A DNA stretch of 31,270 nucleotides, taken from NCBI GenBank assembly GCA_964417825.1, contig CAYQJC010000002.1:1-31270 (forward strand), read 5' to 3'. The number at the start of each line of letters is the position of its first letter. Positions within the stretch are counted from its first letter, which is position 1. Below, piece by piece: positions 1,056 through 25,458 of this stretch. The stretch is from an uncultured Candidatus Saccharibacteria bacterium (lineage in GTDB: Bacteria > Patescibacteriota > Minisyncoccia > Minisyncoccales > CG1-02-41-26). The notes beneath the pieces were generated by a model. That model made no database searches. It worked only from the letters and a program-made list of their open reading frames with translations, and was not told the DNA's origin. Both the position numbers and the translations under genes were made by a program.

Positions 1056-1970
1056 TCAGCAATAAGGTTTTAATTCGTCTAGTCCATAGATTTCTGCATA
1101 ACTTTTCCAAACCCCAAAGCAATATTTTTTCAACTTGCAAATTTGACATTGTTTTCCATAAACTTTAGAGGCCTTATTATAATCAAAAAGATTACTTTGG
1201 TTTTTTCTATTTTGCTGAATACATTGGTATTCCATAGAATACTCTTCAAACCCTTTTAAAAAACAAAGGGGAAATCCACAGCCAGAATTCATAAAACTAA
1301 TATTTTTCTCTTGGCAATATTTCATTGCTTGAATTACATAGGGTGCGACTTTTGACATTTTCGGAACTATCCATCTATTTTCCCAAGCCAAACCAGCTGG
1401 TTGAACAAAAGAGAAAGAAAACACATTAATATTCTTCTTTCGATCTATCTTGATTACTTTTTTAAAATTCCGATGGATAAATTTTATAGTCTCTGGTACT
1501 TGCTGATAGTTTAAACTGTTGACTAAGATATTGAAGGTAATAAAAACTCCTTGATTCTGAAGATTTTTAATTCCCTGTACTGCATGTTTAAAGCTACCAG
1601 GAGTTCTAGTTAAAGCATCAAAAGTTTTTTTATCAGAAGAATAAAAAGGAACAAAAGCATGAGTCAAACCACTTCTCCGAAGGCGTTGGGTAAAATATTG
1701 ATAACAGCAAAGCATAGCATTAGTCTGAATGCCGATTCCTTCAATACCTCTCTTTTTAGCATATTTAATTAAATTTATTAAATAAGGATTAAGGGTTGGC
1801 TCACCGCCGGTGAATAACACAACCAAATCCTTTGAGTTAGAAGATAATTCATCGATTTTCTTTTTAGCGGTAATGTAATTGAAAGAATGTTCGTCTTTCT
1901 TGCCTCGGATATTACAAAATATGCAGTTCTGATTACAACTTAAATTTAATCTTAAAATAAATTCTCGCAT
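1056..1970 (-). CDS. Radical SAM protein, HxsC-like paralog
   Basis: CNQNCIFC cluster motif, FTGGEPTL, QTNA, TRTPGSF, C-terminal FPLC...CQICKLKKYCFG. Confidence 0.85.
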   Translation of the reverse strand: MREFILRLNLSCNQNCIFCNIRGKKDEHSFNYITAKKKIDELSSNSKDLVVLFTGGEPTLNPYLINLIKYAKKRGIEGIGIQTNAMLCCYQYFTQRLRRSGLTHAFVPFYSSDKKTFDALTRTPGSFKHAVQGIKNLQNQGVFITFNILVNSLNYQQVPETIKFIHRNFKKVIKIDRKKNINVFSFSFVQPAGLAWENRWIVPKMSKVAPYVIQAMKYCQEKNISFMNSGCGFPLCFLKGFEEYSMEYQCIQQNRKNQSNLFDYNKASKVYGKQCQICKLKKYCFGVWKSYAEIYGLDELKPYC

Positions 1971-1973
1971 AAT

Positions 1974-2906
1974 TTAGGGCCTAAGAATTTTTTTAATTAT
2001 TTTATTTTTATCAACAAATACGGGATAAAGTTCTTTGGCATCATAATATTTACCCATCATATATAACCCAGCACAAATATCATTCAAGAAACAGCTTTTA
2101 CAACATTCAGCTTTGGAATATCTAAAATTTTCTACTCTGACAAATCCTTTTTTATCTAAAAAATGAATGGCCATTTCCTCTCTCTTGACAATCTTTCTGG
2201 TCTCAGTAGAGCAGTGTTCAAAACCGGTCATGTAACAAAGAGGTACTCTCTCCACTCTGAAGGTCCGACCAGTTTTTTGTAAATACTCCATAGCCCGATG
2301 TAAAGATAATTCAAAATCATTTAATCGAGGAATGGTATCGGGATTTTCAGTAGCTCTATTCATTGAAGGGTCTAAATTGTTCCAAACGAAATGCCGCAAA
2401 AATGGAAATCTTTTAGTCAGCCAGATCACGTTTTTATCAAGGTGATCAGCATTATATTTGTTAATAACAGTATTAATATCTACTGTGATTCCTCCAATCT
2501 TTTTTAAGTTCTCCAGGGCTTTTTTGATGTTGGAGAAAGAGTCATCATTCTGAGTAAGGAATCCTTGGATGTCTGGTTTAATGGAATATATGGAAAGATG
2601 AAGATGATAAAGTCCTGAATCTTTGAGAAGCTTGAGATATCCAAAATCTGCTATTTTCTGCCCGTTGGTAATGACTCTGGCATGAATTTTCTTTTTTTTG
2701 CAATAAGAAAGGAATTTTGGTAATTGAGGTGATAAAGTTGGTTCTCCCCCAGTAAAAATAACTCCATCATACCCCTTTTTTATAAAATAATTGATATCAG
2801 AAAGGCCCTCTTGGAAAGAAAGGGTTTTTTTAGTGGGAGGGTTAGAACAAAATCTACATTTCTGATTACATTTCCTTGTAACTTGAATATATCCTAAAGT
2901 AGCCAT
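1974..2906 (-). CDS. Radical SAM protein, HxsC-like paralog
   Basis: CNQKCRFC, FTGGEPTL, ITNGQ, C-terminal VPLC...CKSCFLNDICAG. Confidence 0.85.
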   Translation of the reverse strand: MATLGYIQVTRKCNQKCRFCSNPPTKKTLSFQEGLSDINYFIKKGYDGVIFTGGEPTLSPQLPKFLSYCKKKKIHARVITNGQKIADFGYLKLLKDSGLYHLHLSIYSIKPDIQGFLTQNDDSFSNIKKALENLKKIGGITVDINTVINKYNADHLDKNVIWLTKRFPFLRHFVWNNLDPSMNRATENPDTIPRLNDFELSLHRAMEYLQKTGRTFRVERVPLCYMTGFEHCSTETRKIVKREEMAIHFLDKKGFVRVENFRYSKAECCKSCFLNDICAGLYMMGKYYDAKELYPVFVDKNKIIKKILRP

Positions 2907-5006: not shown

Positions 5007-6953
5007 TCATCTTATTGGTTTAAGGTCACTTAATCCACCACATCTTCTATACCCTTCGTAAATTCCCGGGCATACTTTCTTCCGTGAGCAAAATTGGCAA
5101 CATTTCCCTTTAATCCTTTGGCCCTCGTCGGTTCTATAAAATCTGTCCTCAAAAACTTCACTCATATACAAGATATTATTTGTCTGAAGATTGTCTTTTA
5201 AATCCGGATTATCCACTAAACAATCTGACAGACCATCAAAGCCAGTTTTTATTTTTTTAGAGATAGCGCAGTGCATAGCTTCGTTTATTGCCAAAGAGGC
5301 TTCTTTAAGCGATGGGATTAATTTATTAAAATTTTTCAAAGCTTCTCCTTTTGGCTCAACCAAAGAAAATTTAATTCGATTGATTTTGAATTCTTCTACT
5401 AAATCAACGATCTTTTTTAGGTCTTTAAGATTGAGCTTCGTAACCACCACATTTACTATTAGCTCAATCTGATGGCTAGAAAGATTTTTAAGAGCTCTCA
5501 GGGTTTGATTAAAACTCCCCGGCGTTCTGGTAATAAAATCGTGCCTTTCCGGATTTGCTGAATTTAAAGTAAGATAAACATATTTTAGATTTCTTTTTAA
5601 AAGATTCTCGGAGAGTTTTCGATAACTTAATAATCTTCCATTGGTGATTAATCCCCAAGGAATCTTTCTTTGCCAGAGGGAATTAACTACTTTAGGAAAA
5701 TCTGGATGTAAAGTCGGCTCACCACCAGAAAAAAGAATCATTTCCGCTCCAATTTGTAATGCCTGATTAATTTTGTTTATTATTTGATGAAATCGAAGAG
5801 GAGGAATATTTCTCTTATCTAAAGCATGGCAAAAAAGGCAGTTATTGTTACATTGGTATTGAATTTTTATCAAGGCTTTTTTTAAATCGATTATCTTTTT
5901 CACTTTCTCACATTTTTGATAGGTAACCTTAGAACCCAAATAGAGGTATGGTCTTCTAAAATTATTTTGAGAAAAATCAATTCCTATCGCACTTGGGAAA
6001 AAAGAATATTTGTCCACAAAATTTCTTTTGAGGATTTGCCATGAATTTTTCTCTTTTTTATTTAATTTACTAAAGAATAATTTTAGCTCCTCGGTTAAAT
6101 TTCCCATACCAGTTATTTTCTGGAACTCATAAATTTTAAAAAATTTGATTGATTCCAGTTCTGAATCTTGATTAAACCGATGAAGAAGATACCAAGAACC
6201 ACTTTTCTCTTTATTTAACAAAAGCAAATTATCAATGAGATTTTTTGATGCTTTCAGGTTATTATTTTTAAAGACCCGGGAAATGAGGTTGCGGTTTAAT
6301 TTTTTATAGTGGTTATATATCTTTAGATTCTTTAGATTTTTTGGAGAAGGGAAAAAATCAATACCAATTAAATCAGAATCTGAAAAATGAGCTATCTTAG
6401 AAATTTTTTCATTATTAAACCCAAGAATCTGACACATCTTATTAATTTTTTTTATCCATTCTTGCCTTGGACAACAATGAGATAATCTCCAAAAATAAAT
6501 TTTTAATCTAGCCGGAAATTTTCCCTTAGATTGAACGAATCCAAAGGATACCTGATATTTATCCAGAGGAAAAAGTGAAAGAATTTTTTCAAGCTTATTA
6601 AAATTATCAATTTGAAATAAATCAAAAATCTTTTTTATTTTGCTGACGAACTCCTCTTTCTCCCAATATTTATCATCACCATCGATTCTGGAACATGCAA
6701 ATCTAAAGGAGGAAAAAGGATTTGGGAGAATAAATGAGAATTCAAACCATATCTGCTTTGGGAAGATGTTATCACCCTCATCGAGAAAGATATTTCTAAT
6801 TTTTTTTAGTTTGCCTAAGCTTTCTAAATGAGCTTTTCTAATTAAAAATTCCCAAGCCTCTTCCAGAACTTCTTTCTCTACTCCTTGCTTAAATTTAACT
6901 GGTTTAATAGCTTCTAATCCTCTGTAATTTTTAAAATTTTTTATAATTTTCAT
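5007..6953 (-). CDS. Two-domain protein: predicted ABBA/DMATS-type prenyltransferase-like N-terminal domain fused to an HxsC-like radical SAM domain
   Basis: The C-terminal ~290 aa carry CNNNCLFC, FSGGEPTL, ITNGR, TRTPGSF and CQFCSRKKVCPG (radical SAM, confident). The N-terminal ~345 aa show five beta-hairpin-like motifs with FEFSF..FRF, RLKIYF and LKIY (prenyltransferase call is inference). Confidence 0.7.
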   Translation of the reverse strand: MKIIKNFKNYRGLEAIKPVKFKQGVEKEVLEEAWEFLIRKAHLESLGKLKKIRNIFLDEGDNIFPKQIWFEFSFILPNPFSSFRFACSRIDGDDKYWEKEEFVSKIKKIFDLFQIDNFNKLEKILSLFPLDKYQVSFGFVQSKGKFPARLKIYFWRLSHCCPRQEWIKKINKMCQILGFNNEKISKIAHFSDSDLIGIDFFPSPKNLKNLKIYNHYKKLNRNLISRVFKNNNLKASKNLIDNLLLLNKEKSGSWYLLHRFNQDSELESIKFFKIYEFQKITGMGNLTEELKLFFSKLNKKEKNSWQILKRNFVDKYSFFPSAIGIDFSQNNFRRPYLYLGSKVTYQKCEKVKKIIDLKKALIKIQYQCNNNCLFCHALDKRNIPPLRFHQIINKINQALQIGAEMILFSGGEPTLHPDFPKVVNSLWQRKIPWGLITNGRLLSYRKLSENLLKRNLKYVYLTLNSANPERHDFITRTPGSFNQTLRALKNLSSHQIELIVNVVVTKLNLKDLKKIVDLVEEFKINRIKFSLVEPKGEALKNFNKLIPSLKEASLAINEAMHCAISKKIKTGFDGLSDCLVDNPDLKDNLQTNNILYMSEVFEDRFYRTDEGQRIKGKCCQFCSRKKVCPGIYEGYRRCGGLSDLKPIR

Positions 6954-8368
6954 TTTTTAATCGTTTTAATCGGCTTTAAAATCTTATAGCCGAAATTGCG
7001 AATATAGTTTATATGAACACCCGGACAGCTTTTAAAATATTTACATTTCCGACATCTGATACTTTTGGTATAGTACTTTTTTAAGATGAACCAATCGGTG
7101 TATTTATAAATATCAATAAAACCTCCTCTATAGATTTCAGAAATATCACTATCCTTTTCTGTAACAATCTCGCCTTTGGGATACAGACATATGGGAATGT
7201 TTTCAATCTTAAACCCTGGGAGTTTAACTTTACTAAAAAAACTTCTTAAATTTATATCATTTTTTTTAGATTGAGATAAAAGGTGGTGATTTTCTTGAAA
7301 AAAAACAATTTTATCTCGAAATCTATAAAGTTTTTTTAAATTCCTTAAAATCCAATCTTTGGTTCTTTTATTAATGGCAATCTCAAAACATCCTTTTTGA
7401 GCAAAATTAATTTTTTTTATATCATTCTCATTTTTTATTAAAGTCACAGATTTCTTTGAAAAATCTCTTTTTGTCTCTGGATGTTTAACCAAGAGCAACT
7501 GGAAACAGAAATCTTTTAAAAAACACCATTTACATCTTTCCCCCCAACAAGGCATAAGTTTATCCTCTCTTAAAAATTTGTTAAACAAACCTTCTCTTCC
7601 CTTCACCTCATCGTATAATTTCACCGGATCCTGGATTAAATCCTCAGACCCCTCAAGATAGGGAGGAGGAAATCGGTTGGTCCAAAGATGAACTCTTGAA
7701 TCATGGGAAATCTTAAAAGCTCTTTTAAGATAAGGTAAAGCGTCTTCAATTTTGTAAAAAACTTTCTTTTTGTTTTTCCAAGCATCGCCAAAAGGAATGA
7801 TTTGTAAAAGATCGAATTCATAAACTCCAAGACCCATAAAAAATTTTATAATTTCAGGAAGTCGTCGATAATTAATTTTATTTATAACAATATCTATATT
7901 CACAATCAGCCCCTTGCAACTTAAAGCATTGATTAATCCCGTCATCGCTTGAGAGAAAGAACCCTTAACTTGACTTTGAACTTCATATAATTTTTCAGTA
8001 TGACCATGAATTGAAAAAGTAATTTCATCTACCCCCCTTTCAATGGCTTTTTTAAGAAATCCTTTGTAGCTGAACATTCGGCCATTGGTAATTATCTGGA
8101 CTTTTTTGTAACCAAGTTCTTTAGTAAATTCTACTACTTCTAGAAATTGTGGATGTAAAGTCGGCTCTCCTCCCGAAAGCACCGCTCTTTCAGCTCCGTT
8201 CTTAATTCCCTCCTTTAACTTTTCTTTTATTATCTTTAAGGGAACGAAGGTTCCATCCTGAGAGGGTCTATCCAAACAAAAAATGCACCGGTTATTACAG
8301 CACCGAGTTAACCTAACCCACTGACGTCTTTCCTGGGAAGCTTTTTCTTTCTCCAATAATCTGTTCAT
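6950..8368 (-). CDS. Radical SAM protein, HxsC-like, with an extra C-terminal Cys module
   Basis: CNNRCIFC, LSGGEPTL, ITNGR; two C-terminal Cys sets, CKWCFLKDFC and IPICL...CRKCKYFKSCPG. Confidence 0.85.
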   Translation of the reverse strand: MNRLLEKEKASQERRQWVRLTRCCNNRCIFCLDRPSQDGTFVPLKIIKEKLKEGIKNGAERAVLSGGEPTLHPQFLEVVEFTKELGYKKVQIITNGRMFSYKGFLKKAIERGVDEITFSIHGHTEKLYEVQSQVKGSFSQAMTGLINALSCKGLIVNIDIVINKINYRRLPEIIKFFMGLGVYEFDLLQIIPFGDAWKNKKKVFYKIEDALPYLKRAFKISHDSRVHLWTNRFPPPYLEGSEDLIQDPVKLYDEVKGREGLFNKFLREDKLMPCWGERCKWCFLKDFCFQLLLVKHPETKRDFSKKSVTLIKNENDIKKINFAQKGCFEIAINKRTKDWILRNLKKLYRFRDKIVFFQENHHLLSQSKKNDINLRSFFSKVKLPGFKIENIPICLYPKGEIVTEKDSDISEIYRGGFIDIYKYTDWFILKKYYTKSIRCRKCKYFKSCPGVHINYIRNFGYKILKPIKTIKK

Positions 8369-8380
8369 GATAAGATAAAA

Positions 8381-9271
8381 TTATTTAACCGGCTTAAACT
8401 CCTCCCAGCCAAAATGTTCTGGATATTCTCGCCAAGGTCCTTCGCAAATTTTAAAATATTTACACCTCTTGCAACTTTCCGCTTTGGTTTTACCTTCCTC
8501 TTTTCTCGCTTTAGTGAAATTAATTATTTGATCTCGCTCAAATACTGTAGTATCTGGTATAATTTTCTCAGCAATATAATCTTCATAGCCTTTCATAAAA
8601 CAGAGGGGAATGGCTTCAGTCATTACTCTCTTGCCGGCTTTTCGTCCAATATCTAACCCTTCTTTCACGAAGGGTTCAACTAAGCTTTTTCTTGGAACAA
8701 TTGAATCAAAATTTTCTTCTGCCCTGCCCAAAGCATGAGGGAAGGCAAATTGAAACTGATCTACTCCAAGTTTCACCAGAAGCTTTGCAATCTCGGGAAG
8801 ATGTCGATAGTTAGACTTAGTAATAACAGTATTGGTTACTACCGCAACTCCCAGTAATTTGAGATTTTTTATCCCTCTCACTGTTTGGGAAAAACTTCCT
8901 TTAACGGTCGTTAAATAATCATGAAGTTGAGGAATATGCCCGTGTAAAGCAGGTGAAAATTCGTTGGCTCCAGCTAAAATTGTTTTTTTGCAAAATTCTT
9001 TGTAAGCGAACATCCTGCCATTAGTTTGGATTTGGATAATCTTAAATTTTAGATTACTAGCATATCTTACTAATTCTAAAAAATCTTTTCTTATTGTCGG
9101 TTCTCCACCAGTGAAGACTACTCCCTGACAATTTTCTTTTTTTGCCTTCCTTAGGGCTTCTTTAACTTCCTGGGTAGTTTTATCGGGATAAATCTCTCTT
9201 TTGTTACCTTGAACGCAAAAACGACATCTATTATTACAAGAAAACCCCACTTTTATATCTGCTCTTTTCAT
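8381..9271 (-). CDS. Radical SAM protein, HxsC-like paralog
   Basis: CNNRCRFC, FTGGEPTI, QTNGR, IPLC...CKRCKYFKICEG; first gene after precursor 9406-9660. Confidence 0.85.
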   Translation of the reverse strand: MKRADIKVGFSCNNRCRFCVQGNKREIYPDKTTQEVKEALRKAKKENCQGVVFTGGEPTIRKDFLELVRYASNLKFKIIQIQTNGRMFAYKEFCKKTILAGANEFSPALHGHIPQLHDYLTTVKGSFSQTVRGIKNLKLLGVAVVTNTVITKSNYRHLPEIAKLLVKLGVDQFQFAFPHALGRAEENFDSIVPRKSLVEPFVKEGLDIGRKAGKRVMTEAIPLCFMKGYEDYIAEKIIPDTTVFERDQIINFTKARKEEGKTKAESCKRCKYFKICEGPWREYPEHFGWEEFKPVK

Positions 9272-9405: not shown

Positions 9406-9660
9406 TTACCAATTTCCATGGGAACCATGGGAACCATGGGAACCATGAGAACCATGGGAAGTATGAGAAGCATGACGTCCTCGAGCTCCTGAGTTGTGAA
9501 AATAATTGCTGTGTCCAGCGTGAGTAATAGTTGCATCTAAAGCGATCCCAATTACAGCTAAAGCAGCTCCAATTTTAGCAATACTTTTTTTACTTATTTT
9601 CCCCTCTTCGGAGTTAAGAAAAGTTCTAAGATTTTTTTTGATTTTTGGAATTTTCTTCAT
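9406..9660 (-). CDS. hxsA: His-Xaa-Ser repeat precursor peptide 1 (HxsA-like)
   Basis: 84 aa: basic leader, FLNSEEGKISKK, hydrophobic stretch, THA-G, then HNS...HAS HTS HGS HGS HGS HGS HGN W; located in a cluster with HxsB and HxsD. Confidence 0.85.
   Translation of the reverse strand: MKKIPKIKKNLRTFLNSEEGKISKKSIAKIGAALAVIGIALDATITHAGHSNYFHNSGARGRHASHTSHGSHGSHGSHGSHGNW
9416..9460. repeat. Five tandem 9-bp units (ccatgggaa x3, ccatgagaa, ccatgggaa) encoding Ser-His-Gly repeats
   Basis: Read directly from the sequence; in frame within hxsA1. Confidence 0.95.
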
Positions 9661-9681
9661 AATATTTTAAAATTACTTTAA

Positions 9682-10641
9682 TTATTTTCCCCAGAGAATT
9701 TGTTCATATATTTTTGTTTTCATATCACAATACTTCTCTTTTAATGCTTTCCCATAGAGATTTTGGCAAGTTTTTCCTTCATAAAATAACCCTCTAACCT
9801 GTTTAACAAATTCTACCTCTTGGTGAGATCGATTAAGAATTTTCGACCTTTCTTGAAATTTCTCAGCAGCTTTTTCTCCATTAGGCAGAAGAGACTGAAA
9901 ATAGTAAACTATCATCTCGCAATTATTTTTCTCATCTTTCTCTAATTTTTTGCATAAGTTTAGATCATCCAAAGCTAAGGCTTCACAAGAAGTTTGAAAA
10001 GATGGATTATTCTCTATTTTCGAGCAAAATTGAGCATCTTCCTTAGATAAGACCTCAAGAGCAATCTCGCAGTACTCCTTGCTGCCTCCCATATATTTTG
10101 ATACCTGTTCTTCTTCACAGATACTAATATCGGGGGATCTATTTTCAATTATAGGTAAGATAACTTTATAATAAATAAAATAATTCCGCTGACAAGTATC
10201 GTAACTTACTTTTGCCTCCTCCCCTTTCGCCCCTTCAACAACTTCTCCACTTTCTCTGGTTATCTCTTCAGGACCCATCTCAAAAAATCTATCACATTCT
10301 GCTAAATTTTCATGTTCAAGAGCTAAACAAAATATGAAATCTCTGGACAGTCTCTTTACCTCCCATTCTCCAAACTCCCCCATCTCTTCTCCGGGAAGAG
10401 TCACTGGTTCTATTGCCCAAGCTTCCAACAAAGGCTGAGGAGTCTTCAAACAAGTTTCTTTAAATTTTTCAACTTTCATATCAATCTCCTCTCTTTGAGA
10501 AACAGAAATTTCTTCTCCGGGCTTTCCTTTTTTCTTCCAAAATTCTGCTATTTCTTCTTTTTGAAGAAATACGAACAAAGAAGCTTGGAAAACTACTATC
10601 GCGATTAAAATCCAAATAATAATTTTTATCTTTTTCTCCAC
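9682..10641 (-). CDS. Cys-rich, N-terminally membrane-anchored protein (paralog family member 1)
   Basis: N-terminal TM IIIWILIAIVVFQASLFVFL, 12 Cys in short helical repeats, C-terminal KEKYC; ends 21 nt before hxsA1. Confidence 0.8.
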   Translation of the reverse strand: MEKKIKIIIWILIAIVVFQASLFVFLQKEEIAEFWKKKGKPGEEISVSQREEIDMKVEKFKETCLKTPQPLLEAWAIEPVTLPGEEMGEFGEWEVKRLSRDFIFCLALEHENLAECDRFFEMGPEEITRESGEVVEGAKGEEAKVSYDTCQRNYFIYYKVILPIIENRSPDISICEEEQVSKYMGGSKEYCEIALEVLSKEDAQFCSKIENNPSFQTSCEALALDDLNLCKKLEKDEKNNCEMIVYYFQSLLPNGEKAAEKFQERSKILNRSHQEVEFVKQVRGLFYEGKTCQNLYGKALKEKYCDMKTKIYEQILWGK

Positions 10642-10664
10642 AAAAATCTATTATTAATTATTTT

Positions 10665-10694
10665 ATTATAAGTCAGCGGAAGAAAACAAGTCAA
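10665..10694 (-). promoter_or_regulatory. Sigma70-type promoter for Cys-rich gene plus hxsA1
   Basis: TTGACT (10694-10689), 18 nt, TATAAT (10670-10665). Confidence 0.55.
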
Positions 10695-10708
10695 TATCAA
10701 AATTAAAT

Positions 10709-11857
10709 TTAACGGAAAATAGCTAAAATAATGCTCAAAATGGAATTTTGGGTAACTAAAGTAATAATAAACCCCAAAAATAAAAAAGGAGAAAATGGGA
10801 AAGTACGATAAATTTTTAATTTCTTTTCCGGTTCCTGACCCCAGATCTTCCTAATGAAATTTACCTGATCCTCAGTTAGTCCCTCAGAGAAAAAAGACCC
10901 TATTTTAGCTTCTATTTCTTTTTTTGTTTTTAATTGCATCTTTTTCAAGAGTTCTCTTAAAGTTGTTTGAGAAAGAATCATCTGAGGTCGGAGCTCTTTT
11001 AATTTTATTTCTCTGGTTTCTTTCTTTTCAATGTAAAAATCTAATATCTGACGAAGCAAGTTTATAATGACCATAAAAAATAAAGCAGTTTTAAGAATAT
11101 TAAAAAGAACTCCTAATTGAGAAGTGCTCACTAAGTACCCACTGTAAACCAAAGAGCCAATTCCTAATCCTAAAACAACTTTTTTCTTTTTACCTAAAAT
11201 TCTAAAAATAACTCTATAAGAGAAAAAGATAACAAAGAAAATTAAAACTGGATTTGAAATAACAGAGCTGAGCTGCTGAGAAACCTGGGCCCTTGCTAAA
11301 TGTAAAATAATAAATATCGAAATAAACCCTACAAAAGTACCGGCTATCTTCTTGACTTTCGGTTTAATCTCAATAAATAGTTTTTTCAAAGAACTAAAAT
11401 TAATTTTGGTCTTTTTTATCTTTAAAATTTCTTTTATCCCTATTACTGAACCTTGAATCACCAAAAGAATAAGTAAAGGAAAAAAGGTATTAACTAAGAG
11501 ACAAAAAGAAGGAAAATAAGGTAGATAACTTTTTGAATAAAATTTTAAAGGCAAAAGCAAAGCATATAAAGTGAAAAGTTTAGCATCACCAGCTGACCAG
11601 AGATTAAAATACCAAATCCCATAACCTACCAAAAAGGCAATTCCTCCATTTAATAAAAGGTTTAGTAAATAGCGATCATTCTCCGGCTCATGAAGATAAA
11701 AAAGATTGTAAAGAAATAGTCCGAGATAAAGAAAAATCGCCCACATTAAACCAAAAAGAATCCACTTATTTTTAATTTTCCCATACCTAATATCAGTGAA
11801 ACAACAAATACCACCAACAATAAAAAGAGGGGTTAAGAATAAAAAATCAATAATCAT
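10709..11857 (-). CDS. A24-family prepilin/preflagellin-type aspartic peptidase with an extended membrane region
   Basis: Catalytic-type motifs TDIRYGKIKN and SAGDAKL, many TM segments, KELRPQMIL and C-terminal FPFSPFLFLG. Confidence 0.8.
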   Translation of the reverse strand: MIIDFLFLTPLFIVGGICCFTDIRYGKIKNKWILFGLMWAIFLYLGLFLYNLFYLHEPENDRYLLNLLLNGGIAFLVGYGIWYFNLWSAGDAKLFTLYALLLPLKFYSKSYLPYFPSFCLLVNTFFPLLILLVIQGSVIGIKEILKIKKTKINFSSLKKLFIEIKPKVKKIAGTFVGFISIFIILHLARAQVSQQLSSVISNPVLIFFVIFFSYRVIFRILGKKKKVVLGLGIGSLVYSGYLVSTSQLGVLFNILKTALFFMVIINLLRQILDFYIEKKETREIKLKELRPQMILSQTTLRELLKKMQLKTKKEIEAKIGSFFSEGLTEDQVNFIRKIWGQEPEKKLKIYRTFPFSPFLFLGFIITLVTQNSILSIILAIFR

Positions 11858-11998: not shown

Positions 11999-12241
11999 TT
12001 GAAAGAAAGATTTTATAGATTAAATGTAGGTTGGGAGACAATTGTTTTAGCTCTCCTGGTCATTATAGCTCTAAGCGGAACTCAGCGAATAACCACTTCA
12101 CCGAATAAGAGTTTCGTAACCCAGATCCCAAATTTTCTCCAACCACCAACCCGAGAAGAAATTAGAAAAACGGAGAGGATCAGAATAAGGATCGACGTAA
12201 GCCGAAATATTTGTTTGGCAAACCTCTTCGTTATTGGTTAA
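11999..12241 (+). CDS. Small hydrophobic hypothetical protein, probably a truncated membrane or secreted protein
   Basis: Strong SD 6 nt before TTG, upstream promoter, hydrophobic IVLALLVIIAL. The 3' part is antisense to the conserved portion of the 12098-12524 pseudogene. Confidence 0.5.
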   Translation: MKERFYRLNVGWETIVLALLVIIALSGTQRITTSPNKSFVTQIPNFLQPPTREEIRKTERIRIRIDVSRNICLANLFVIG

Positions 12242-12558: not shown

Positions 12559-13356
12559 TTAATCCCTTCCCCAAACCTTGCGATGACAATATTTTGTTTT
12601 AAACTTCTCAAATTTTTCTTGACAAAAAGAAGTTGGGTTTTCCCTAAAGAATAACTGGCAATACATTTTAATATGAGGGTGTTCTATTTGGTTACATTTT
12701 GATTCTTCATTATCAATTAGGGCTTTGTAATACCGAGCTTGACTCTGGCAATACATTCTTTTTTCTTGAGAGTTATAAAAATTACAATATTTTTCATCCC
12801 CAGATAGCATAGCTAAACACCAGGCTTTAAAATCTTCATCTCCCCCTTCACTGCAGCGATAAAAGTCCCTTTCTAAGATTGCCAGACAAAATTTCTGGCA
12901 CCAAGCTTCCAGAGCTGGGTCTCCAGAATTACTAATTGCTTTTTTACACGCTTCAATTTCTCCTGCTTCACATTTTTTGTTTTTAATTATTCTTCCCAAG
13001 AAATTGGGAAAGAGATAAAATAATCTCTGACAATTTTTAGCAATATCAGGAGAAATATTTTTTAATAAGTTGCACTGAAAGGGATTTTGCTTTATAGCTG
13101 CTTGACATTCTAGGTATTGGATTAAATTTTCCATTGACTCTTGGCTATAGTAAATTACCCCTTCTCGAATCACCTGATTAAAATCAAACCTCTCTAGACA
13201 CTCTTTTTCTTTTTTCTCCAAAACCACCTGAAGTTCGGGTGAAATAGTTGGAGTGACTTCTTCTTTTTCTTTTGGTCGTCGAAGAACAATTAATGTAATG
13301 TTTAATATTACACCAATTGCTATTAGAGAGAGTATAATAATCAGTTTTTTGTTCAT
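12559..13356 (-). CDS. Cys-rich, N-terminally membrane-anchored protein (family member 3)
   Basis: TM LIIILSLIAIGVILNITLIVL, 16 Cys, KEKECLERFDFN, YLECQAA, C-terminal KTKYC. Confidence 0.8.
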   Translation of the reverse strand: MNKKLIIILSLIAIGVILNITLIVLRRPKEKEEVTPTISPELQVVLEKKEKECLERFDFNQVIREGVIYYSQESMENLIQYLECQAAIKQNPFQCNLLKNISPDIAKNCQRLFYLFPNFLGRIIKNKKCEAGEIEACKKAISNSGDPALEAWCQKFCLAILERDFYRCSEGGDEDFKAWCLAMLSGDEKYCNFYNSQEKRMYCQSQARYYKALIDNEESKCNQIEHPHIKMYCQLFFRENPTSFCQEKFEKFKTKYCHRKVWGRD

Positions 13357-14294: not shown

Positions 14295-14843
14295 TCAATT
14301 TTTAGAGCCAGAGGGCTTTTTATTTGATTTTTTCTTTTTCTCTTCTTCTTCCAACTTTTCAAGCGCCTTTAAATAATGGCGGCTTAATTCAAAAGCTGGA
14401 GGTGAAAATTTTTGGATTTGTTCCATCCGTTTTTGGAAAATTTTCAAGATTCTAATGGTATCAATAACACTAAGATGATAGTCGATAAATCTCCGAATGG
14501 CAAATATTGTCTCTCGTATCTCTATTTGTCTACCAACTTCCTCATTCCAAGCAGAAGCAAGAATAATAAATTCATTAACTAAATCTTTAAGAATCGGGGT
14601 GAGGGGTTGCTCAATGACAATTCTTAATAAAAGATTTAATATTTGTTTTATTTGGCTTTTTTCTTCTTCATTAACCCTAACTTTTCTTTTTTTTCGTTTT
14701 TCTTTCAATTGTCCGCCCATTAGCTCAACAGTTTTCTTGACTAAATCTAATTTCTCTTGGGTGAGAACGGAGTAAATCTGAATATGGCCCAAAATCTCCT
14801 TTAGTTTTTTAATATTTGGTTGATAAATAATTTTATTCTTCAT
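14295..14843 (-). CDS. Hypothetical helical protein coupled to the radical SAM pair
   Basis: 182 aa; start overlaps the upstream radical SAM stop by 11 nt; FSPPAFELSRHYL segment; no recognised family. Confidence 0.7.
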   Translation of the reverse strand: MKNKIIYQPNIKKLKEILGHIQIYSVLTQEKLDLVKKTVELMGGQLKEKRKKRKVRVNEEEKSQIKQILNLLLRIVIEQPLTPILKDLVNEFIILASAWNEEVGRQIEIRETIFAIRRFIDYHLSVIDTIRILKIFQKRMEQIQKFSPPAFELSRHYLKALEKLEEEEKKKKSNKKPSGSKN

Positions 14844-16161
14844 TAATAAATTCTTCTAGTAGATTTAGAGAAACCTTTTTATCTTTATTTAATTTCTCAA
14901 AAATTCTATCATAGATTCCTAATCTCTTATATGTTTTTATCATAGTTAAAATTTTAGCATGTTCAAGTTGGCAAACGGTGGGAATAGGTGAAAATAAATC
15001 TCCGGTTGTTTCGTATTGAGCCCCGAGACATCCCCCAGAACACAAATACTTTAAAGGGCAACTTTCACATATCGGAGCGGTTTTAATATCGAAGGTAATT
15101 GAGCCTATAAGTAATTCTGGGTTCTTACTTTCTATGCCGATAATTCTGCCATTTTTAACAATAAACCTTCCCAATTCAAATGGGGAATAAGATGTCCTAT
15201 GGCAAGGAATAAATGTTAAATCGCCTAATCTTAAATGAAAAGTGGATTGAAGAGAACAGCCTATTCCCCTACCAACAGTTGTTAAGGGAGAATGTAAAAT
15301 GTTATAACCTTTCTTATTGAATACGAAGTCGAGGAAATTGCCTTTGTTTTTTTGGCAAGGAAAATAGTAAGTCCATTCAATCAGAAACTCTATAAATCTC
15401 ATAAACTCTTTAATCTGTTTTTTTGACCACTCAACATTTCTGACTTCTAGTAAATAAATATTAAAAAAGGGAATGTTAAATTTTTTAAAGTTTTTTTGAA
15501 ACCAAAGAAAATTTTTCTGCCAATTCTCAATAAGTACAGAATAAATCATTGGATGGAATCCATAACAATACTTTTTATTAAAAGCGAAAACTCTCTCATA
15601 ATATTCATTATTCCGTTTTTCTTTTCCTGTCTTAAATGGTCTGTTTTTCTCACAATATTTTCCATCAAAGGAAGCTGATAAAATAATAGGCATTTCTAAT
15701 TCTCTTGAAGCTTGGATAAGTTCCTCAACCCGCTTAGTTTTTTCTGGCGAAAGCAGAAAGGTGTAATTGGTAGGAATAACAATGCTCTTTGGCCGATTTT
15801 TTACTGATTTAAACTTATTCAAAATTAGCTCTAAAGCCTTAAATCCTAGTTCCTGCGAGAAAGGTTCACCCCCAAAAATCTCAATTTTTGGATAATATCC
15901 CTTCCGAATAAGCCAGTCTAAAAACAGCGAGAGATTTCTTAAAAGAATTTTTGGGCTTTGAATTTCTATTGGATAAAGTTCTTCACCATAATTAGCCACA
16001 TAACAATATTTGCATTTTAAATTACAAGAAGTATTTAAGAAAATCTCTAACTGTTCAAAGTTAACCAAATCTTCCTTCCAACCCTTGAAAAAAGTGTGGT
16101 TTAAAAATGAATTTACTAATTTGTTATTTTCTTTTTGATAAAGTTTTATTTTTTCTGCCAT
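14833..16161 (-). CDS. Radical SAM/SPASM peptide maturase (non-HxsB/C type)
   Basis: CNLKCKYC, FGGEPF, SPASM-type GIGC..PCHRT..CESCPLKYLCSGGC..VC. Confidence 0.85.
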   Translation of the reverse strand: MAEKIKLYQKENNKLVNSFLNHTFFKGWKEDLVNFEQLEIFLNTSCNLKCKYCYVANYGEELYPIEIQSPKILLRNLSLFLDWLIRKGYYPKIEIFGGEPFSQELGFKALELILNKFKSVKNRPKSIVIPTNYTFLLSPEKTKRVEELIQASRELEMPIILSASFDGKYCEKNRPFKTGKEKRNNEYYERVFAFNKKYCYGFHPMIYSVLIENWQKNFLWFQKNFKKFNIPFFNIYLLEVRNVEWSKKQIKEFMRFIEFLIEWTYYFPCQKNKGNFLDFVFNKKGYNILHSPLTTVGRGIGCSLQSTFHLRLGDLTFIPCHRTSYSPFELGRFIVKNGRIIGIESKNPELLIGSITFDIKTAPICESCPLKYLCSGGCLGAQYETTGDLFSPIPTVCQLEHAKILTMIKTYKRLGIYDRIFEKLNKDKKVSLNLLEEFINEE

Positions 16162-17519
16162 TCTATATATTCTTTTAAAATTTCTTCAAAAGCACCGTTA
16201 GCAAAAAGTCTTATCATTGAGATGGGAGAAAAATGAATAACTCCAGTATTTAAGACATTTTCTGTAGGACATCCAAGGGCTAGATTTAAAAAAATAGCAA
16301 ATAAAATTGCCAAATCTTCATCTAAATAGCATTCGCTTGCTTGACCAACTAAAACAAGCTCCTGAAGCATTGCTAATGTGTAGCTGATTTTTAATCTAGT
16401 AAAATCGTGGTAGTTTCGCCCTACATAAAAAAGTCTTATTTTTTCTTCTAGTTTATTTATATCTACTATAAACTTATTTTTAATTAAATCTAAATTTCCT
16501 TTTTCAAACAAACTTACATCCCAATTTTTTATTTCTTCATTTTTTAAAATACTCTCAATGTACTCTTGATTATTTAAAAAGAAAGAGCGATGGCAAATAT
16601 GCAAATCATTGTCTATTCCCACTCCAAAATTACTATCTCCTCCGCTACAGGTGAACATATAAGGTTTGATAAATAACTCATTCTGATAGTCAAATAATCT
16701 CTTTAGGCGATAAACATAGGTATTTAAAGAACTTTTGACATACTTCCAATGTTGATTTTTTTTATTTTGCTTTCCTAAAATCCTTAAATTTCTAAAGAAA
16801 ATTGCTAATTCTTTCCCGTCAACTGAGGTATATTTCCCAGGGCAAACTAAAGTTGGAGTACAACTAGTTAGCAAACTTACTTTTTGATTTTTGTTCTTTC
16901 TTTTAAATTCTTGGAAAATTTTCTCAAAGAAATCGAAATATTTTCTTAATCTTTCCTTTTTCTTATTCAAGATCTTAATATTGTCAATTGATAAAGTTGG
17001 CTTTAGCGAAAATCTAACATTTAGATTGGTTAAGTTTATGGTATTTAATTTGCTGATTAAATAAAAAAAATTTTCAGTTATTTTTTTTGTTGCTCCAGGA
17101 CCTCTATTGATATCGGTAATAAAATCAGGACCATCTATGGAAATTTGGACTTTAAGATTAATTTTTTTCCTGGTTTTGGTTAAGGCTTTGATAAAATTCA
17201 AAATAATCTCCGGGTTGGTCAAGAGATTGGTCGAAAAAGAGATTCCCACCAGCTTAGGGAAAGTTTTGAAAAGAAAAGATAAAGATTTTTGAATTTTTTT
17301 TAGGGTTAATGTCGGTTCGGTCCCCCAGAATCCTAAATATTGAAGATTCTGACCGTAAGCTCTTTTTAAGGTATCGAGATACTCTCTCTGGTCAAGGTTA
17401 GTTATTATCTTATCTTGGAGAAATCCCATCTGGGAAGTTTTTGGGATATAACAATACTTACAGTTTAAAGGACAGGTAGCTGAAGAGAATAACTCTGTTG
17501 AAACCATTCTTTTGTTCAT
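16146..17519 (-). CDS. Radical SAM peptide maturase with a reduced SPASM/Twitch-like tail (non-HxsB/C type)
   Basis: CPLNCKYC, WGTEPTL, SIDGP, FTCSGG..HICHRS..LGCP; first gene after precursor 2. Confidence 0.85.
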   Translation of the reverse strand: MNKRMVSTELFSSATCPLNCKYCYIPKTSQMGFLQDKIITNLDQREYLDTLKRAYGQNLQYLGFWGTEPTLTLKKIQKSLSFLFKTFPKLVGISFSTNLLTNPEIILNFIKALTKTRKKINLKVQISIDGPDFITDINRGPGATKKITENFFYLISKLNTINLTNLNVRFSLKPTLSIDNIKILNKKKERLRKYFDFFEKIFQEFKRKNKNQKVSLLTSCTPTLVCPGKYTSVDGKELAIFFRNLRILGKQNKKNQHWKYVKSSLNTYVYRLKRLFDYQNELFIKPYMFTCSGGDSNFGVGIDNDLHICHRSFFLNNQEYIESILKNEEIKNWDVSLFEKGNLDLIKNKFIVDINKLEEKIRLFYVGRNYHDFTRLKISYTLAMLQELVLVGQASECYLDEDLAILFAIFLNLALGCPTENVLNTGVIHFSPISMIRLFANGAFEEILKEYIEWQKK

Positions 17520-17560: not shown

Positions 17561-17995
17561 TTAAGCAAGCAGATTGAGATTTGTATAATCGTCAGTATAA
17601 TTGGTACTAAGAGCAACTGTTTTTTCAGCAGACTTATCACTCAGACAGTGTCCACCTAAATCATCGCTGAAATATATTGAATTATCGGCAGACTTATCGG
17701 CAGAACATCCACCATTATCGTGAGACCCATGAGAACCATGGGAGCCATGGGAATTGTGGGAACTGTGATTACTGTGAGAACCGTGGTCTCCTCTGGCTCC
17801 TGAGTTGTGGAAGGCGCTTGAGTGGGGGGTGGAACTTGAATGGCCAGCCCAGATATTCTTGGCTCCAAAAATAGTAGCCAAGAGAGTTAAACCTAGTCCA
17901 AGCTTGAGGGCATTCTTTTTACTAATCTTTCCTTCTTCTGAAGAGAGGAAAGATTTAAGATTCTTTTTGATTTTGGGGAGGTTTTTCTTTTTCAT
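17561..17995 (-). CDS. hxsA: His-Xaa-Ser repeat precursor peptide 2 with an acidic Cys-containing C-terminal extension
   Basis: Same leader as hxsA1 (PKIKKNLKSFLSSEEGKISKK), IWA-G, HSS..HSS..HNS GARGD HGS HSN HSS HNS HGS HGS HGS HDN, then GGCSADKSAD...GGHCLSDKSAE. Confidence 0.85.
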   Translation of the reverse strand: MKKKNLPKIKKNLKSFLSSEEGKISKKNALKLGLGLTLLATIFGAKNIWAGHSSSTPHSSAFHNSGARGDHGSHSNHSSHNSHGSHGSHGSHDNGGCSADKSADNSIYFSDDLGGHCLSDKSAEKTVALSTNYTDDYTNLNLLA

Positions 17996-18010: not shown

Positions 18011-18841
18011 TTAAAAACCAGCCCATTGGTGACAATAATTATCTCTAATTAATTTTAACCTATTTTCGCAAAGTATTTTCGGATTAGAAATAAAATATAA
18101 GTTACAAATTGTTTTAAGAGAAGGGTTTTTTATTGTCTCACAATTCTCTTCCTTTTTACTACCAAGGGCGAAGAAATATTGCCAAATATCAAGGCATTTA
18201 TCTTTAGTTGACTGGTCTAAAAAATTATCACAATATTTTTTCTCTTTAGATATTACAACCTGACACAAAAAATAGAGAGGCTTTCCTTTTTCAGTCAAAG
18301 GGAAAAGCTGGGAACAGATATTAGTATCTTCTTGAAGATAGGCTCGACAGAAATTTCTGCAATGTTCCTCAGTAATCTTTTCATTAAGGGAATCCTCCTC
18401 CTTTCTCCCCACAAACTCTACACAACTCTGAATGGCTCGATTATTACACTCGCCTTTTTTCTCTACTTCTTCAAAAAAATTATAAGTATAAAAACACCTC
18501 TCACATCCTAGAAAATATTTTGAACCATATAATTGCTCACAAACTTTTATCTCCCTTTCTTGCACTGCTTTACAGGTAATATATTCTGCAAATAAATTGT
18601 TTAATTTATTGCTTAATTCAGTTGGTAAAAGGTGCTTTTTTAACTCCCGGTTTATTACCTCGTTTAAATTAAAATTATTATAACAATATTCTTTTCTCTT
18701 CTCAACCACCTCTAAGGGGACCTCGAAAGAAATCTTTTCTTGTTTTTCCTTCCTTTCTTTTATCATCAGAAAGTACACTATTAAAATCGAACTACCAATC
18801 AGTATTATGAGAATAATTGTAGTTTTTATCGTTTTTTTCAT
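18011..18841 (-). CDS. Cys-rich, N-terminally membrane-anchored protein (family member 4)
   Basis: Likely start is the second Met (18841; the ORF track start 18865 overlaps hxsB). TM IILIILIGSSILIVYFL, 17 Cys, C-terminal RDNYC; ends 15 nt before hxsA2. Confidence 0.8.
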   Translation of the reverse strand: MKKTIKTTIILIILIGSSILIVYFLMIKERKEKQEKISFEVPLEVVEKRKEYCYNNFNLNEVINRELKKHLLPTELSNKLNNLFAEYITCKAVQEREIKVCEQLYGSKYFLGCERCFYTYNFFEEVEKKGECNNRAIQSCVEFVGRKEEDSLNEKITEEHCRNFCRAYLQEDTNICSQLFPLTEKGKPLYFLCQVVISKEKKYCDNFLDQSTKDKCLDIWQYFFALGSKKEENCETIKNPSLKTICNLYFISNPKILCENRLKLIRDNYCHQWAGF

Positions 18842-18846
18842 ATTAT

Positions 18847-20274
18847 CTATCCAGCCCCTAACCACTTATCAAATACCTTTTTTATCTTTTTGTTTTGTAG
18901 TCTCTGAAAGAGGTAATCTAACATTCCTTTGTTTAATCTACACCTATCGTTATTGGGCAAAGAAGCAAAAAGGTTGCCATAAAGAGCATAATTTAGAACT
19001 GGACAGACCCCGCAGTAGGGTTTGTAACAGCAATAGTCACAAGGAAGGTTATCAAGACAAGAAGCTATACAAGCTGCTTTCACAGCATCATGAGAAACTA
19101 TTTCTTGATAACTATTTCTCTTCACATTGCCAATCTTAAATACATCATCTTCCAACATCCTTCCCTCATCGCAAGTAAAAACATCTCCATTGTAATTATA
19201 GGAGAGCTGGCCAATGCCTGCTCCACAGGGAGAACGCAGATCCAGATAACCTGGGTCTTGGTCAGTCAAAATTTTACGAAGCATAACCACCGCTCCCCTC
19301 TCAGAAATTTTTTTCTTTTTAAAATTTAATTCAATGATATAATCCATTGCTTCTCTCCAGAATCTTAAGAATTCCTCAGTTGAGTAACCAATTTTATCTT
19401 TAAGTTTCCCTGAAAGTCCTAAATAACTGAGGGGTCTTAAATGAATAGTTGAAAAACCCCACTTTAGGTATTCATCGATAATTTCTTTGGGGTATTTCAA
19501 TGAATAGCGAGATATAGTTAAAAGAGCATTAACTCGGTTTAATTTTGGATGTTCTTTTCGATAATTATTTATTCTCTTAACCCAGTAGACAGTTTTTTCA
19601 TAGCTATTTCCTCCGATAAGAATTCTGTTTTTGTTGTGAAGTTTTTCTGGGCCGTCTAAAGAAGTACAAAGCCCTACTCTGTTTTTAAAAAGAAATTTTA
19701 ATTTTTTCTCATCCAAAAGTGAAAAATTAGAAACTAGGGTAATCCATAAATCCTTTTCTCTCTTTTTATTTTTTTCTCTAGCATACTCAACAATAAACTT
19801 AACAGTTGGCCAATTAACTAAAGGCTCTCCTCCCTGAAATTCAATAGTTATATTTTTGTTTGGACTACAAAATATCGTATCTACCACCTTGCGAGCAGTT
19901 GGAATATCCATATCATAGCCCTTCTCTTCTAAACTCCGCGAGCTGACCTGACAATAGATGCATTTATGATTACATCTTAGAGTGACCACGACAATGTGTA
20001 AGCTTGGCCCTTGGGCTAAGAAGGCATTTCGAGAACGATATTTTTCTATTAAATTATCAAAGTCTAAGTAGTCTCTGATAAATTCTCTAGATTCCATTTT
20101 CTTGTAGAGTTCTGTCTTTTTGTCTAAGTTTCCTTCCAAAAATCTTATAAACGATTTCTCAGTTAAAAAAATATACTCACCAATGTCATTGGTAAGTAAA
20201 TATTTCCTCCCAAATTTTTTGAACCGGCAAAATCCTATTTTATCTAAGTTAATTTTATCTAAATCAATGTTCAT
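18847..20274 (-). CDS. hxsB: His-Xaa-Ser system radical SAM/SPASM maturase HxsB
   Basis: N-terminal KYLLTNDIGEYIFL region, PSLHIVVVTLRCNHKCIYCQ, IEFQGGEPL, SPCGAGIGQLSYNYNGDVFTCDEGRM, CDYCCYKPYCGVCP; HxS peptide and HxsD neighbours. Confidence 0.85.
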   Translation of the reverse strand: MNIDLDKINLDKIGFCRFKKFGRKYLLTNDIGEYIFLTEKSFIRFLEGNLDKKTELYKKMESREFIRDYLDFDNLIEKYRSRNAFLAQGPSLHIVVVTLRCNHKCIYCQVSSRSLEEKGYDMDIPTARKVVDTIFCSPNKNITIEFQGGEPLVNWPTVKFIVEYAREKNKKREKDLWITLVSNFSLLDEKKLKFLFKNRVGLCTSLDGPEKLHNKNRILIGGNSYEKTVYWVKRINNYRKEHPKLNRVNALLTISRYSLKYPKEIIDEYLKWGFSTIHLRPLSYLGLSGKLKDKIGYSTEEFLRFWREAMDYIIELNFKKKKISERGAVVMLRKILTDQDPGYLDLRSPCGAGIGQLSYNYNGDVFTCDEGRMLEDDVFKIGNVKRNSYQEIVSHDAVKAACIASCLDNLPCDYCCYKPYCGVCPVLNYALYGNLFASLPNNDRCRLNKGMLDYLFQRLQNKKIKKVFDKWLGAG

Positions 20275-20470
20275 TTTTCATTTCGGCTAAAACATAATTA
20301 GAAAATTCGTCCTTTATTATATTTTTAACATCTTTATCTATTTTACTAAGCTCTACTTTTATTTTATTCTTTTCCTCTTTAGTTCCAAACTTAGCCAAAT
20401 TCTTATAGGCCTTGATCGCTTTTTTTACAGCACTGAGTTTGTAAAATCCCTTATTAAAAACAATAGTCAT
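20264..20470 (-). CDS. Short HxsD-like protein
   Basis: 68 aa, FNKGFYKLSAVKKAIKAY...DEFSNYVL, parallel to INPQLYPLEAIYGASYVF...REFLNEIL in 20506-20958; overlaps the hxsB start. Confidence 0.65.
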   Translation of the reverse strand: MTIVFNKGFYKLSAVKKAIKAYKNLAKFGTKEEKNKIKVELSKIDKDVKNIIKDEFSNYVLAEMKNEH

Positions 20471-25398: not shown

Positions 25399-25413
25399 AG
25401 GTTTTAGATTAAA

Positions 25414-25441: not shown

Positions 25442-25458
25442 GACCTAAGAAAAGGAAT

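Follow-up and report, generated by a model that had tools for sequence, protein, structure and literature searches.

A non-canonical His-Xaa-Ser system of uncultured bacteria and archaea combines precursors whose conserved leader is fused to a predicted secretion signal with a frequently linked A24-type membrane protease

The canonical His-Xaa-Ser (HXS) system, encoded by hxsDBCA of Pseudomonadota (TIGR03976-03979), functions in antiphage defence (Li et al., Nat Commun 2026, PMC13128918); 99.7% of the systems are found in Pseudomonadota, and 99.8% consist of four genes (PMC13128918). The effector of this system must be modified in the cytoplasm, processed N-terminally, and exported; HxsA carries a signal peptide and acts in the periplasm, its N-terminal processing is unexplained, and the coupling of processing to export was left open (PMC13128918). 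Here, we report that a 31,270-nucleotide stretch of DNA from an uncultured Candidatus Saccharibacteria bacterium (contig CAYQJC010000002.1; referred to as the window) encodes an expanded, non-canonical HXS system of the radical S-adenosylmethionine (SAM) type and not a new class of RiPPs (ribosomally synthesized, post-translationally modified peptides). A preliminary description of the window had pointed to two precursors with a signal-peptide-like leader, an A24 prepilin-type peptidase, and the lack of a RiPP exporter, while the identity of the precursors as HxsA3/HxsA4-type proteins, and with it the already named HXS system, went unseen. Both the precursor type (HxsA3/A4) and the HXS system are already catalogued; the variant found in tiny uncultured bacteria and archaea, in which a conserved leader is fused to an ordinary secretion signal, is undescribed, and what appears to be new is the tripartite leader and the link to a dedicated A24-type protease.

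We assigned the cluster to the HXS system because its products match the NCBIfam models for HxsA4, HxsB, HxsD, and HxsD-like above cut-off. All genes of the region are on the minus strand, and they include hxsD (20506..20958; TIGR03976, 64.2 bits, cut-off 50), a gene for a small HxsD-like protein of 68 aa (20264..20470; NF038315, 70.1 bits, cut-off 41), hxsB for a radical SAM/SPASM maturase (18847..20274; TIGR03978, 514.2 bits, cut-off 370), two genes for HxsA3/A4-type precursors, and an array of genes for HxsC-like radical SAM enzymes. The first precursor, HxsA_1 (9406..9660; 84 aa), is a His-Xaa-Ser repeat protein of the HxsA4 type (NF038313, 61.2 bits, cut-off 55). The second, HxsA_2 (17561..17995; 144 aa), is encoded outside the 9406-11857 region given in the preliminary description and has the same leader, with scores under cut-off on both the HxsA3 (NF038309, 55.6 bits, cut-off 65) and the HxsA4 (51.1 bits, cut-off 55) models. 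No match of either precursor to canonical HxsA (TIGR03979) was found at E<=0.1. The exact 84-aa product of HxsA_1 is absent from a collection of 15 billion proteins, although products of neighbouring genes are present, and this small gene was probably left uncalled in the public annotation of the contig.

HxsA_1 and HxsA_2 have in common the sequence M(K)KK(I/L)PKIKKNL(R/K)(T/S)FL(N/S)SEEGKISKK-xxx-K(I/L)G, which is followed by 17 mostly hydrophobic residues up to THA or IWA and then by GHS...FHNSGARG...(SHG)n, and tandem His-Xaa-Ser repeats (SHGSHGSHGSHG) can be read directly in both. HxsA_1 consists of MKKIPKIKKNLRTFLNSEEGKISKKSIAKIG, then AALAVIGIALDATITHA, then GHSNYFHNSGARG...(SHG)n; residues 1-31 (nt 9568-9660) make up the conserved cytoplasmic n-region with Gly31 as its last residue, residues 32-48 (nt 9517-9567) form the h/c-region with T-H-A at its end, and Gly49 opens the core. 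Correspondingly, HxsA_2 reads ...LPKIKKNLKSFLSSEEGKISKKNALKLG, then LGLTLLATIFGAKNIWA, then GHSSS..., with an n-region through Gly33, an h/c-region of residues 34-50 ending in I-W-A, and a core that begins at Gly51. The shared leader motif, the hydrophobic stretch, and the THA-G and IWA-G sites are, therefore, as originally described.

Using leader-based scans of contigs from one genome per species and of metagenome contigs, we obtained 50 loci, many of them short, and compared 43 distinct leaders. Nine loci are genome-derived and come from Parcubacteria-type and other candidate phyla radiation (CPR) bacteria, Omnitrophota, a deltaproteobacterial metagenome-assembled genome, Aenigmatarchaeota, and Woesearchaeota, while 41 of the 50 are metagenomic and have no organism label. 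In the 43 leaders, the motif (L/I)PxIKKxIxxFLxSEEGKI(S/T)K is almost invariant, with no exceptions at P(-13), K(-10), F(-4), and E-E-G-K-I-x-K; the similarity among the precursors is far beyond chance. Position seven after the motif is occupied by a small residue throughout (37 G, 3 S, and 3 A), which a hydrophobic core of 10-14 residues follows; the median net charge of the n-region is +5. In nearly all distinct leaders, an AxA-type signal peptidase I (SPase I) site is located 22-24 residues past the motif (29 in one subgroup) and immediately precedes the conserved His-rich start of the core, xH(S/T)S; at these sites, positions -3 and -1 are occupied by small residues, as in THA↓G, IWA↓G, AQA↓D, AHA↓Q, TSA↓H, VSA↓S, and VEA↓G. 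By the rule for a Sec signal (a positively charged n-region, an h-region spanning 7-15 residues, and small side chains at -3 and -1), the leader is predicted to be a Sec-type signal peptide with an extended, unusually long conserved n-region. The impression of a signal-peptide-like leader gained from the two window precursors is borne out by this Sec-type anatomy in the 43 leaders. A hidden Markov model (HMM) of the leader gave no match beyond the HxsA gene(s) in any of the 50 loci (one per locus, two in L047), and the idea that the leader is a generic sorting signal carried by many proteins was rejected on this basis.

Several HxsA homologues with this leader differ in what follows it. Longer homologues of about 480-560 aa (L006, 10001-11530; L007, 4104-5741; L025, L028, L029, L031, L036, and L046) have the same leader and repeats and then a conserved C-terminal domain of about 400 aa (CPF(L/V)xVWNG...); in that of L007, an (STT)n repeat takes the place of His-Xaa-Ser. 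HxsA of L017, L018, L019, and L024 has the same leader with Cys-containing (SSCH)n repeats and CSCTCAT at the end, while the precursors of L002, L010, and L023 have HGNHGSC-type repeats.

The gene at 10709..11857 encodes a predicted A24-like GxGD aspartyl membrane protease of 382 aa (A24L), which scores 24.3 bits on PF01478 (gathering cut-off, 26.5). The two Asp motifs are FTD22IRYGKIKN and SAGD91AKLF (Asp22, nt 11792-11794; Asp91, nt 11585-11587). The A24 core comprises roughly residues 1-135 and is followed by about five more transmembrane (TM) helices, by a cytoplasmic alpha/beta domain at residues 277-351 (nt 10805-11029), seen as a small alpha/beta domain at 281-350 in the AlphaFold2 model, and by a last TM helix that bears a PFSPFLFLG motif. 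Both Asp residues, I28, N30, W87, A89-G90, and K93 are kept in the cluster-linked homologues (n=7; orthologues with 26-44% identity); two orthologues pass the PF01478 cut-off (32.5 and 29.6 bits), and both archaeal orthologues also pass PF06819 (Arc_PepC, the archaeal A24 C-terminal domain). An exhaustive HMMER search identified 1,243 representative relatives, including 133 at E<1e-30; nearly all of the 150 relatives listed among them have a length of about 360-400 aa, and public annotation labels family members as "prepilin peptidase", "A24 family peptidase", or "CpaA". Across 91 aligned relatives, D22, D91, K93, P103, and Y107 are invariant, and 73 of the 91 match PF01478 (E<1e-3). The previously noticed peptidase with both Asp motifs is real, and because both catalytic Asp residues are invariant in the 91 relatives, we argue that it is an active protease.

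An AlphaFold2 model built from the 91-sequence alignment (pLDDT, 93.5; pTM, 0.88) has about ten TM helices, while a single-sequence run was useless (pLDDT, 48.9). The top fold match of the model in the PDB is FlaK (3S0X_B; probability 0.94, TM-score 0.48, 140 columns, E 0.33); sequence-profile searches of the PDB with the protease found neither FlaK nor any A24 protein, and a scan of viral contigs with the protease alignment gave no match. Based on the positive-inside rule, both Asp residues and the soluble domain are predicted to be on the cytoplasmic side, where the n-region of the substrate would lie. The protein is without the N-terminal/N-methyltransferase domain of bacterial PilD. Together, sequence comparison and model support that the product of 10709-11857 belongs to the A24 family and is of the archaeal type. 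We also considered that the protein could be the general PilD of the cell, and rejected this because canonical PilD (A24_N_bact plus Peptidase_A24) is encoded by a separate gene in L006 and L032.

Next to its conservation, the protease is linked to Hxs clusters in both directions, as the preliminary description had proposed to check. In the forward direction, 17 of the 50 loci with the leader encode a member of the protease subfamily; these are 14 distinct genes, found within 487 kb. Where the fetched sequence reaches 6 kb or more in each direction from HxsA, the protease is encoded in six loci (L004, L005, L006, L008, L019, and L049) and missing from six (L002, L003, L015, L029, L036, and L047); the window, which was counted apart from these, also has it. 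In the reverse direction, we sampled eleven relatives with 26-33% identity to the window protein, ten of which were informative, while the contig of one was too short. Eight of the ten lie in Hxs/radical SAM clusters: in seven, the gene is the array's last, and in one (L057), it neighbours a divergent HxsA; two of the eight adjoin the preceding gene closely (abutting in L063, with a 4-nt overlap in the P0089 locus). HxsD was found in four of these eight loci and HxsA with the same or a variant leader in three. No HxsA was detected in the 10 kb upstream of the protease in L051, L054, and L063; in these loci, HxsA may be more than 10 kb away, and the forward figure (50%) is therefore a lower bound.

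The position of the protease gene varies: some loci have it directly upstream of HxsA, some in divergent orientation to HxsD, and others as the end of the array. Orthologues of the radical SAM gene at 1974-2906 (E 1e-107 to 1e-124) are directly upstream of the A24-like gene in L005 (18186-20192), L052 (9049-11200), and L062 (5010-7224), forming a conserved gene pair, while in the window about 8 kb separate the two. Because the linkage is kept across bacteria and archaea, it argues for functional coupling. We conclude that the A24-like protease is specifically linked to Hxs clusters and is a dedicated accessory of the variant, not a bystander. It is frequent in the clusters and not proven to be obligatory. 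About half of the well-covered clusters are without it in the fetched flanks, and in several protease-negative loci the radical SAM array runs off the fetched sequence. In clusters without a nearby gene, the protease is either dispensable or encoded elsewhere. Two family members were found without an Hxs or radical SAM cluster, both with 28-29% identity (L055/L056, on high-GC contigs, and L058/L059); one of these adjoins a sigma-54 two-component pair and the other, in a diderm, adjoins genes for BamA and an ABC transporter.

The explanation that in our view best accounts for these observations, with a probability of about 0.5, is that the core is exported by Sec and released by SPase I, while cleavage at the conserved Gly by the dedicated A24-like enzyme removes the leader. 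This proposal builds on the anatomy and conservation of the leader, the fold of the protease, the gene identities, and the linkage; from these we infer each cleavage, the order of events, and the binding partners of the leader. First, the invariant, positively charged n-region of about 30 residues would serve as a handle for maturation in the cytoplasm and would probably dock HxsB, HxsD or the HxsD-like protein, and/or the cytoplasmic domain of the protease. Second, the h- and c-regions would route the radical SAM-modified core through Sec. Third, SPase I would free the core at the AxA site. Export and release of the modified core by SPase I are argued for because the small residue, the hydrophobic core, and AxA together form a Sec-type signal; they also agree with the signal peptide and the extracytoplasmic action of canonical HxsA. 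Of the cuts originally envisaged, that by SPase I between A and G is the best supported. Fourth, the A24-like enzyme would act at the n/h boundary, where it would part leader and membrane-embedded signal at the conserved small residue, as prepilin peptidases do. Of the two sites formerly put forward for this enzyme, cleavage after K(I/L)G would fit in geometry (G, S, or A in 43 of 43 leaders; Asp residues on the cytoplasmic side), while cleavage after EEG does not stand. The cut at the n/h boundary might precede translocation and act as an export checkpoint that licenses translocation once maturation is finished, or it might follow the SPase I cut and clear the leader/signal remnant in the manner of a signal peptide peptidase. 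For the more general proposition that the archaeal-type A24 subfamily of CPR bacteria and DPANN archaea is the dedicated leader peptidase of a radical SAM-matured, Sec-exported His-rich peptide and acts at the n/h boundary, with SPase I cutting at the other end, we consider the odds to be somewhat against it.

Several points weigh against cleavage of the leader by the A24-like enzyme. The invariant leader could be recognized by the maturases only, leaving the protease without a role. The residues at the putative A24 site (-2, L, I, M, A, or V; -3, K (21 leaders), E (9), D (3), or T (4)), i.e., hydrophobic at -2 and K, E, D, or T at -3, are unlike the basic residues usually seen in class III signals. 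The PF01478 score of the window protease itself is just under the gathering cut-off, and the fold match to FlaK is modest in both E value and TM-score over the 140 columns. Moreover, in about half of the well-covered clusters the A24-like gene is not within 10 kb, one of the protease-negative loci (L029) shows both ends of the cluster, and, as described, L055/L056 and L058 are family members without an Hxs cluster around them.

The main rival explanation is that HxsA is processed by the general machinery only, i.e., Sec, SPase I, and ordinary degradation of signal peptides, and that the protease is clustered for another reason; it might act on another membrane or secreted substrate, or might be a non-proteolytic scaffold or gate for the radical SAM array. 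We consider this explanation a serious one, with a chance of being correct of little better than one in four. The AxA site alone would be enough for release of the core, the incomplete linkage and the two family members outside Hxs clusters are as this explanation would have them, and the most constant neighbour of the protease is a radical SAM gene and not HxsA. Speaking against a non-proteolytic role, both catalytic Asp residues are invariant in the 91 relatives. As to another substrate, the only other N-terminally hydrophobic proteins of the cluster are the Cys-rich proteins and the 180-aa protein described below; these are without a small residue before the hydrophobic stretch, whereas G, S, or A is always present at the n/h boundary of HxsA. 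Because the Cys-rich and 180-aa proteins are missing from most protease-bearing loci, we rejected them as substrates of the protease.

Alternatively, HxsA might be a true class III substrate that is cut by the A24-like enzyme after K(I/L)G only, with the hydrophobic segment anchoring the repeats on the surface or in a fibre. All 43 leaders have a small residue ahead of the hydrophobic segment, and a dedicated A24 enzyme is present, both of which would fit this possibility; moreover, CPR and DPANN cells are not known to have a periplasm that would retain a free peptide. Class III signals are recognized by a basic residue at -2 (archaeal), Glu at +5 (bacterial type IV pilins), or the motif G↓xTAIEY (Flp), and none of these features was present in the leaders examined. 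Mature class III proteins keep a hydrophobic helix of about 20 residues; the hydrophobic core of 10-14 residues is too short for a pilin alpha1-N helix and is followed by the conserved AxA site at a fixed distance, family searches found no pilus ATPase or platform genes in the window cluster, and the protease is without the bacterial N-methyltransferase domain. Based on these features, the resemblance to Flp/Tad prepilin leaders and the pilin-like product suggested earlier did not hold up, and we consider class III processing improbable, even though canonical HxsA needs anchoring by its peptidoglycan-binding domain (PMC13128918), a domain that is missing here. Finally, that the leader is a twin-Lys version of a twin-arginine translocation (Tat) signal (SKKxxLK), or that the A24-like enzyme cuts after EEG, is very unlikely: SKK(S/N)(I/A)(A/L)K only superficially resembles SRRxFLK, the second Lys is present in 33 of the 43 leaders only (otherwise S, E, Q, T, or R) with no Arg-Arg pair in any of them, and, although EEG has a terminal Gly, EEG↓K falls within the invariant, highly charged motif, 11 residues ahead of the hydrophobic segment, while A24 enzymes cut where such a segment begins.

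The remainder of the cluster is rich in radical SAM genes. Three genes for HxsC-like radical SAM enzymes (8381-9271, 6950-8368, and 5007-6953; together, 5007..9271) are directly downstream of HxsA_1 and two more are located at 1056..2906; for all five, the top NCBIfam models are HxsC4 or HxsC with scores far under cut-off (e.g., 185 bits vs 500). Two additional genes for radical SAM peptide-maturase-like proteins (14833..17519) are downstream of HxsA_2, and of these, only 14833-16161 has a match to the SPASM domain. A PADLOC analysis gave generic radical SAM (pVip) matches only. In agreement with the preliminary description, family searches found no ABC/PCAT exporter in the Hxs cluster (about 1056-21528). 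Two open reading frames at 3022-3354 and 3384-3887 (minus strand) encode proteins of 110 and 167 aa; the 167-aa and 110-aa proteins are 48% and 43% identical, respectively, to consecutive parts of the N-terminal non-radical SAM domain of the 648-aa radical SAM protein encoded at 5007-6953 (minus strand), and in view of these identities, the two appear to derive from a copy of that domain that was split or has decayed. Within the array, genes at 3924-4532 and 4536-4829 (minus strand) encode a membrane protein with DUF6580 (180 bits) and a DUF4430 protein (58 bits), which are the sole pair of membrane proteins in the cluster besides the protease.

Three genes encode Cys-rich proteins with no family match. 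A protein of 319 aa with an N-terminal membrane anchor (9682..10641) is encoded between the A24-like gene and HxsA_1 and has no BLASTP similarity to the other two at E<1e-3. The latter two are membrane-anchored paralogues of 265 aa (12559..13356) and 284 aa (18011..18865, between HxsB and HxsA_2) with 26% identity over 257 aa (BLASTP, E 3e-21), and a truncated copy of such a protein is found at 12098-12403 (34% identity, BLASTP). Two of the three genes are directly upstream of an HxsA gene; homologues are encoded between HxsB and HxsA in L004, L012, and L015 and just after HxsA in L005, and a protein of 259 aa is similarly placed in L003. Just upstream of HxsD, 20986-21528 encodes a secreted or anchored protein of 180 aa (FAFTDAPGPPPSCPSG...PINVG...). 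Homologues of the 180-aa protein recur upstream of HxsD in L001 (2613-3263), L005 (6800-7756), L013, L019, L032, and L045, while Omnitrophota-type loci (L003, L012, and L015) have a protein with an ITITTYYPSP(Y/F)G motif in its place.

The flank of the cluster (21563-31046, minus strand) contains, as read by eye from the translations, ClpP-like, trigger-factor-like, membrane pyrophosphatase-like, and PNPase-like genes and, at 25884-28394, a gene for an extremely Lys/Glu-rich coiled-coil membrane protein of 836 aa. These housekeeping genes agree with an uncultured bacterium that has a small genome of low GC content (about 34%). DNA matching the region was found in hydrothermal-vent DNA metagenomes only, and no RNA runs holding the region were found.

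If the A24-like enzyme is a leader peptidase, it would be the first aspartic/prepilin-type protease in a RiPP-like pathway; the substrates of prepilin-type peptidases would reach beyond pilins, and aspartic proteases would be included among RiPP leader peptidases. The pathway would then have a two-protease "leader plus signal" export checkpoint, which could explain the N-terminal processing in the canonical HXS system. The sharing of one cassette by CPR bacteria and DPANN archaea would, in that case, also point to its exchange between the two groups. If, in contrast, the protease does not cut the leader, what remains is a catalogued HxsA3/A4 precursor with an ordinary secretion signal. The variant is widespread in ultra-small, host-dependent bacteria and archaea and makes the coupling of processing to export testable: its leader is more conserved than the core and is fused to the signal, and the cluster-specific protease has its active site predicted to face the leader.

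Compared with known systems, the locus has HxsD and HxsB in common with the canonical HXS system, together with radical SAM enzymes that are HxsC-like in the window and a His-Xaa-Ser repeat precursor that bears a signal peptide (predicted here) at its N-terminus; presumably shared as well are the maturation of the effector in the cytoplasm, its action outside, and N-terminal processing beyond simple removal of the signal (PMC13128918). The antiphage role and the periplasmic effector are known for the canonical system only, as established in E. coli (PMC13128918). Canonical HxsA has a plain signal of about 22-26 residues, HRS repeats, and a C-terminal peptidoglycan-binding domain; the window precursors, in contrast, have a 22-residue invariant leader ahead of the signal and are without that domain. 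Likewise, the canonical cluster has four genes and no protease, whereas the window has two precursors, an HxsD-like protein, at least five HxsC-like enzymes, Cys-rich proteins, and the A24-like protease. A canonical locus on an Aeromonas plasmid is a case in point: it contains hxsD-hxsB-hxsC-hxsA only and no A24 gene, and its HxsA has a plain signal (MKKLMSTLQRWGVLGLGVLSGHGVTA↓SEAH), HRS repeats, and a peptidoglycan-binding C-terminus. Closest among the NCBIfam models are HxsA3 (NF038309), HxsA4 (NF038313), and HxsC4 (NF038332); the first precursor passes HxsA4, and the second precursor and the radical SAM proteins have their best matches among these models. No NCBIfam model treats an A24-like protein as part of the HXS system, and our literature search found no paper that links an A24/prepilin peptidase to Hxs or RiPP systems or describes the tripartite leader.

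With RiPP leader peptidases (e.g., C39 PCAT, S8, S9, M16, and M50 EpeP), the proposed function would share a dedicated, cluster-encoded protease that removes a recognition leader; a 2023 review of RiPP leader proteases covers Cys, Ser, and metallo families and mentions neither "prepilin" nor "aspartic" (PMC10885120). Signal peptide peptidase (SPP)/SPPL and presenilin are, like A24 enzymes, intramembrane aspartyl proteases of the GxGD mechanistic class; SPP clears signal-peptide remnants after the signal peptidase cut, which corresponds, speculatively, to one of the two proposed orders of events. With the archaeal-type A24 enzymes FlaK, PibD, and EppA (PF01478 with or without PF06819), the window protease shares the two-Asp GxGD-type site at the cytoplasmic face of the membrane, the lack of the bacterial N-terminal methyltransferase domain, a cytoplasmic soluble domain, and a C-terminal PFxPF TM motif. 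Unlike these enzymes, it has about 380 aa, roughly 10 TM helices, and WSAGD(A/G)KLF rather than GxGD, and the protease ends radical SAM arrays instead of being encoded with pilus or archaellum genes, while its presumed substrate has an SPase I site.

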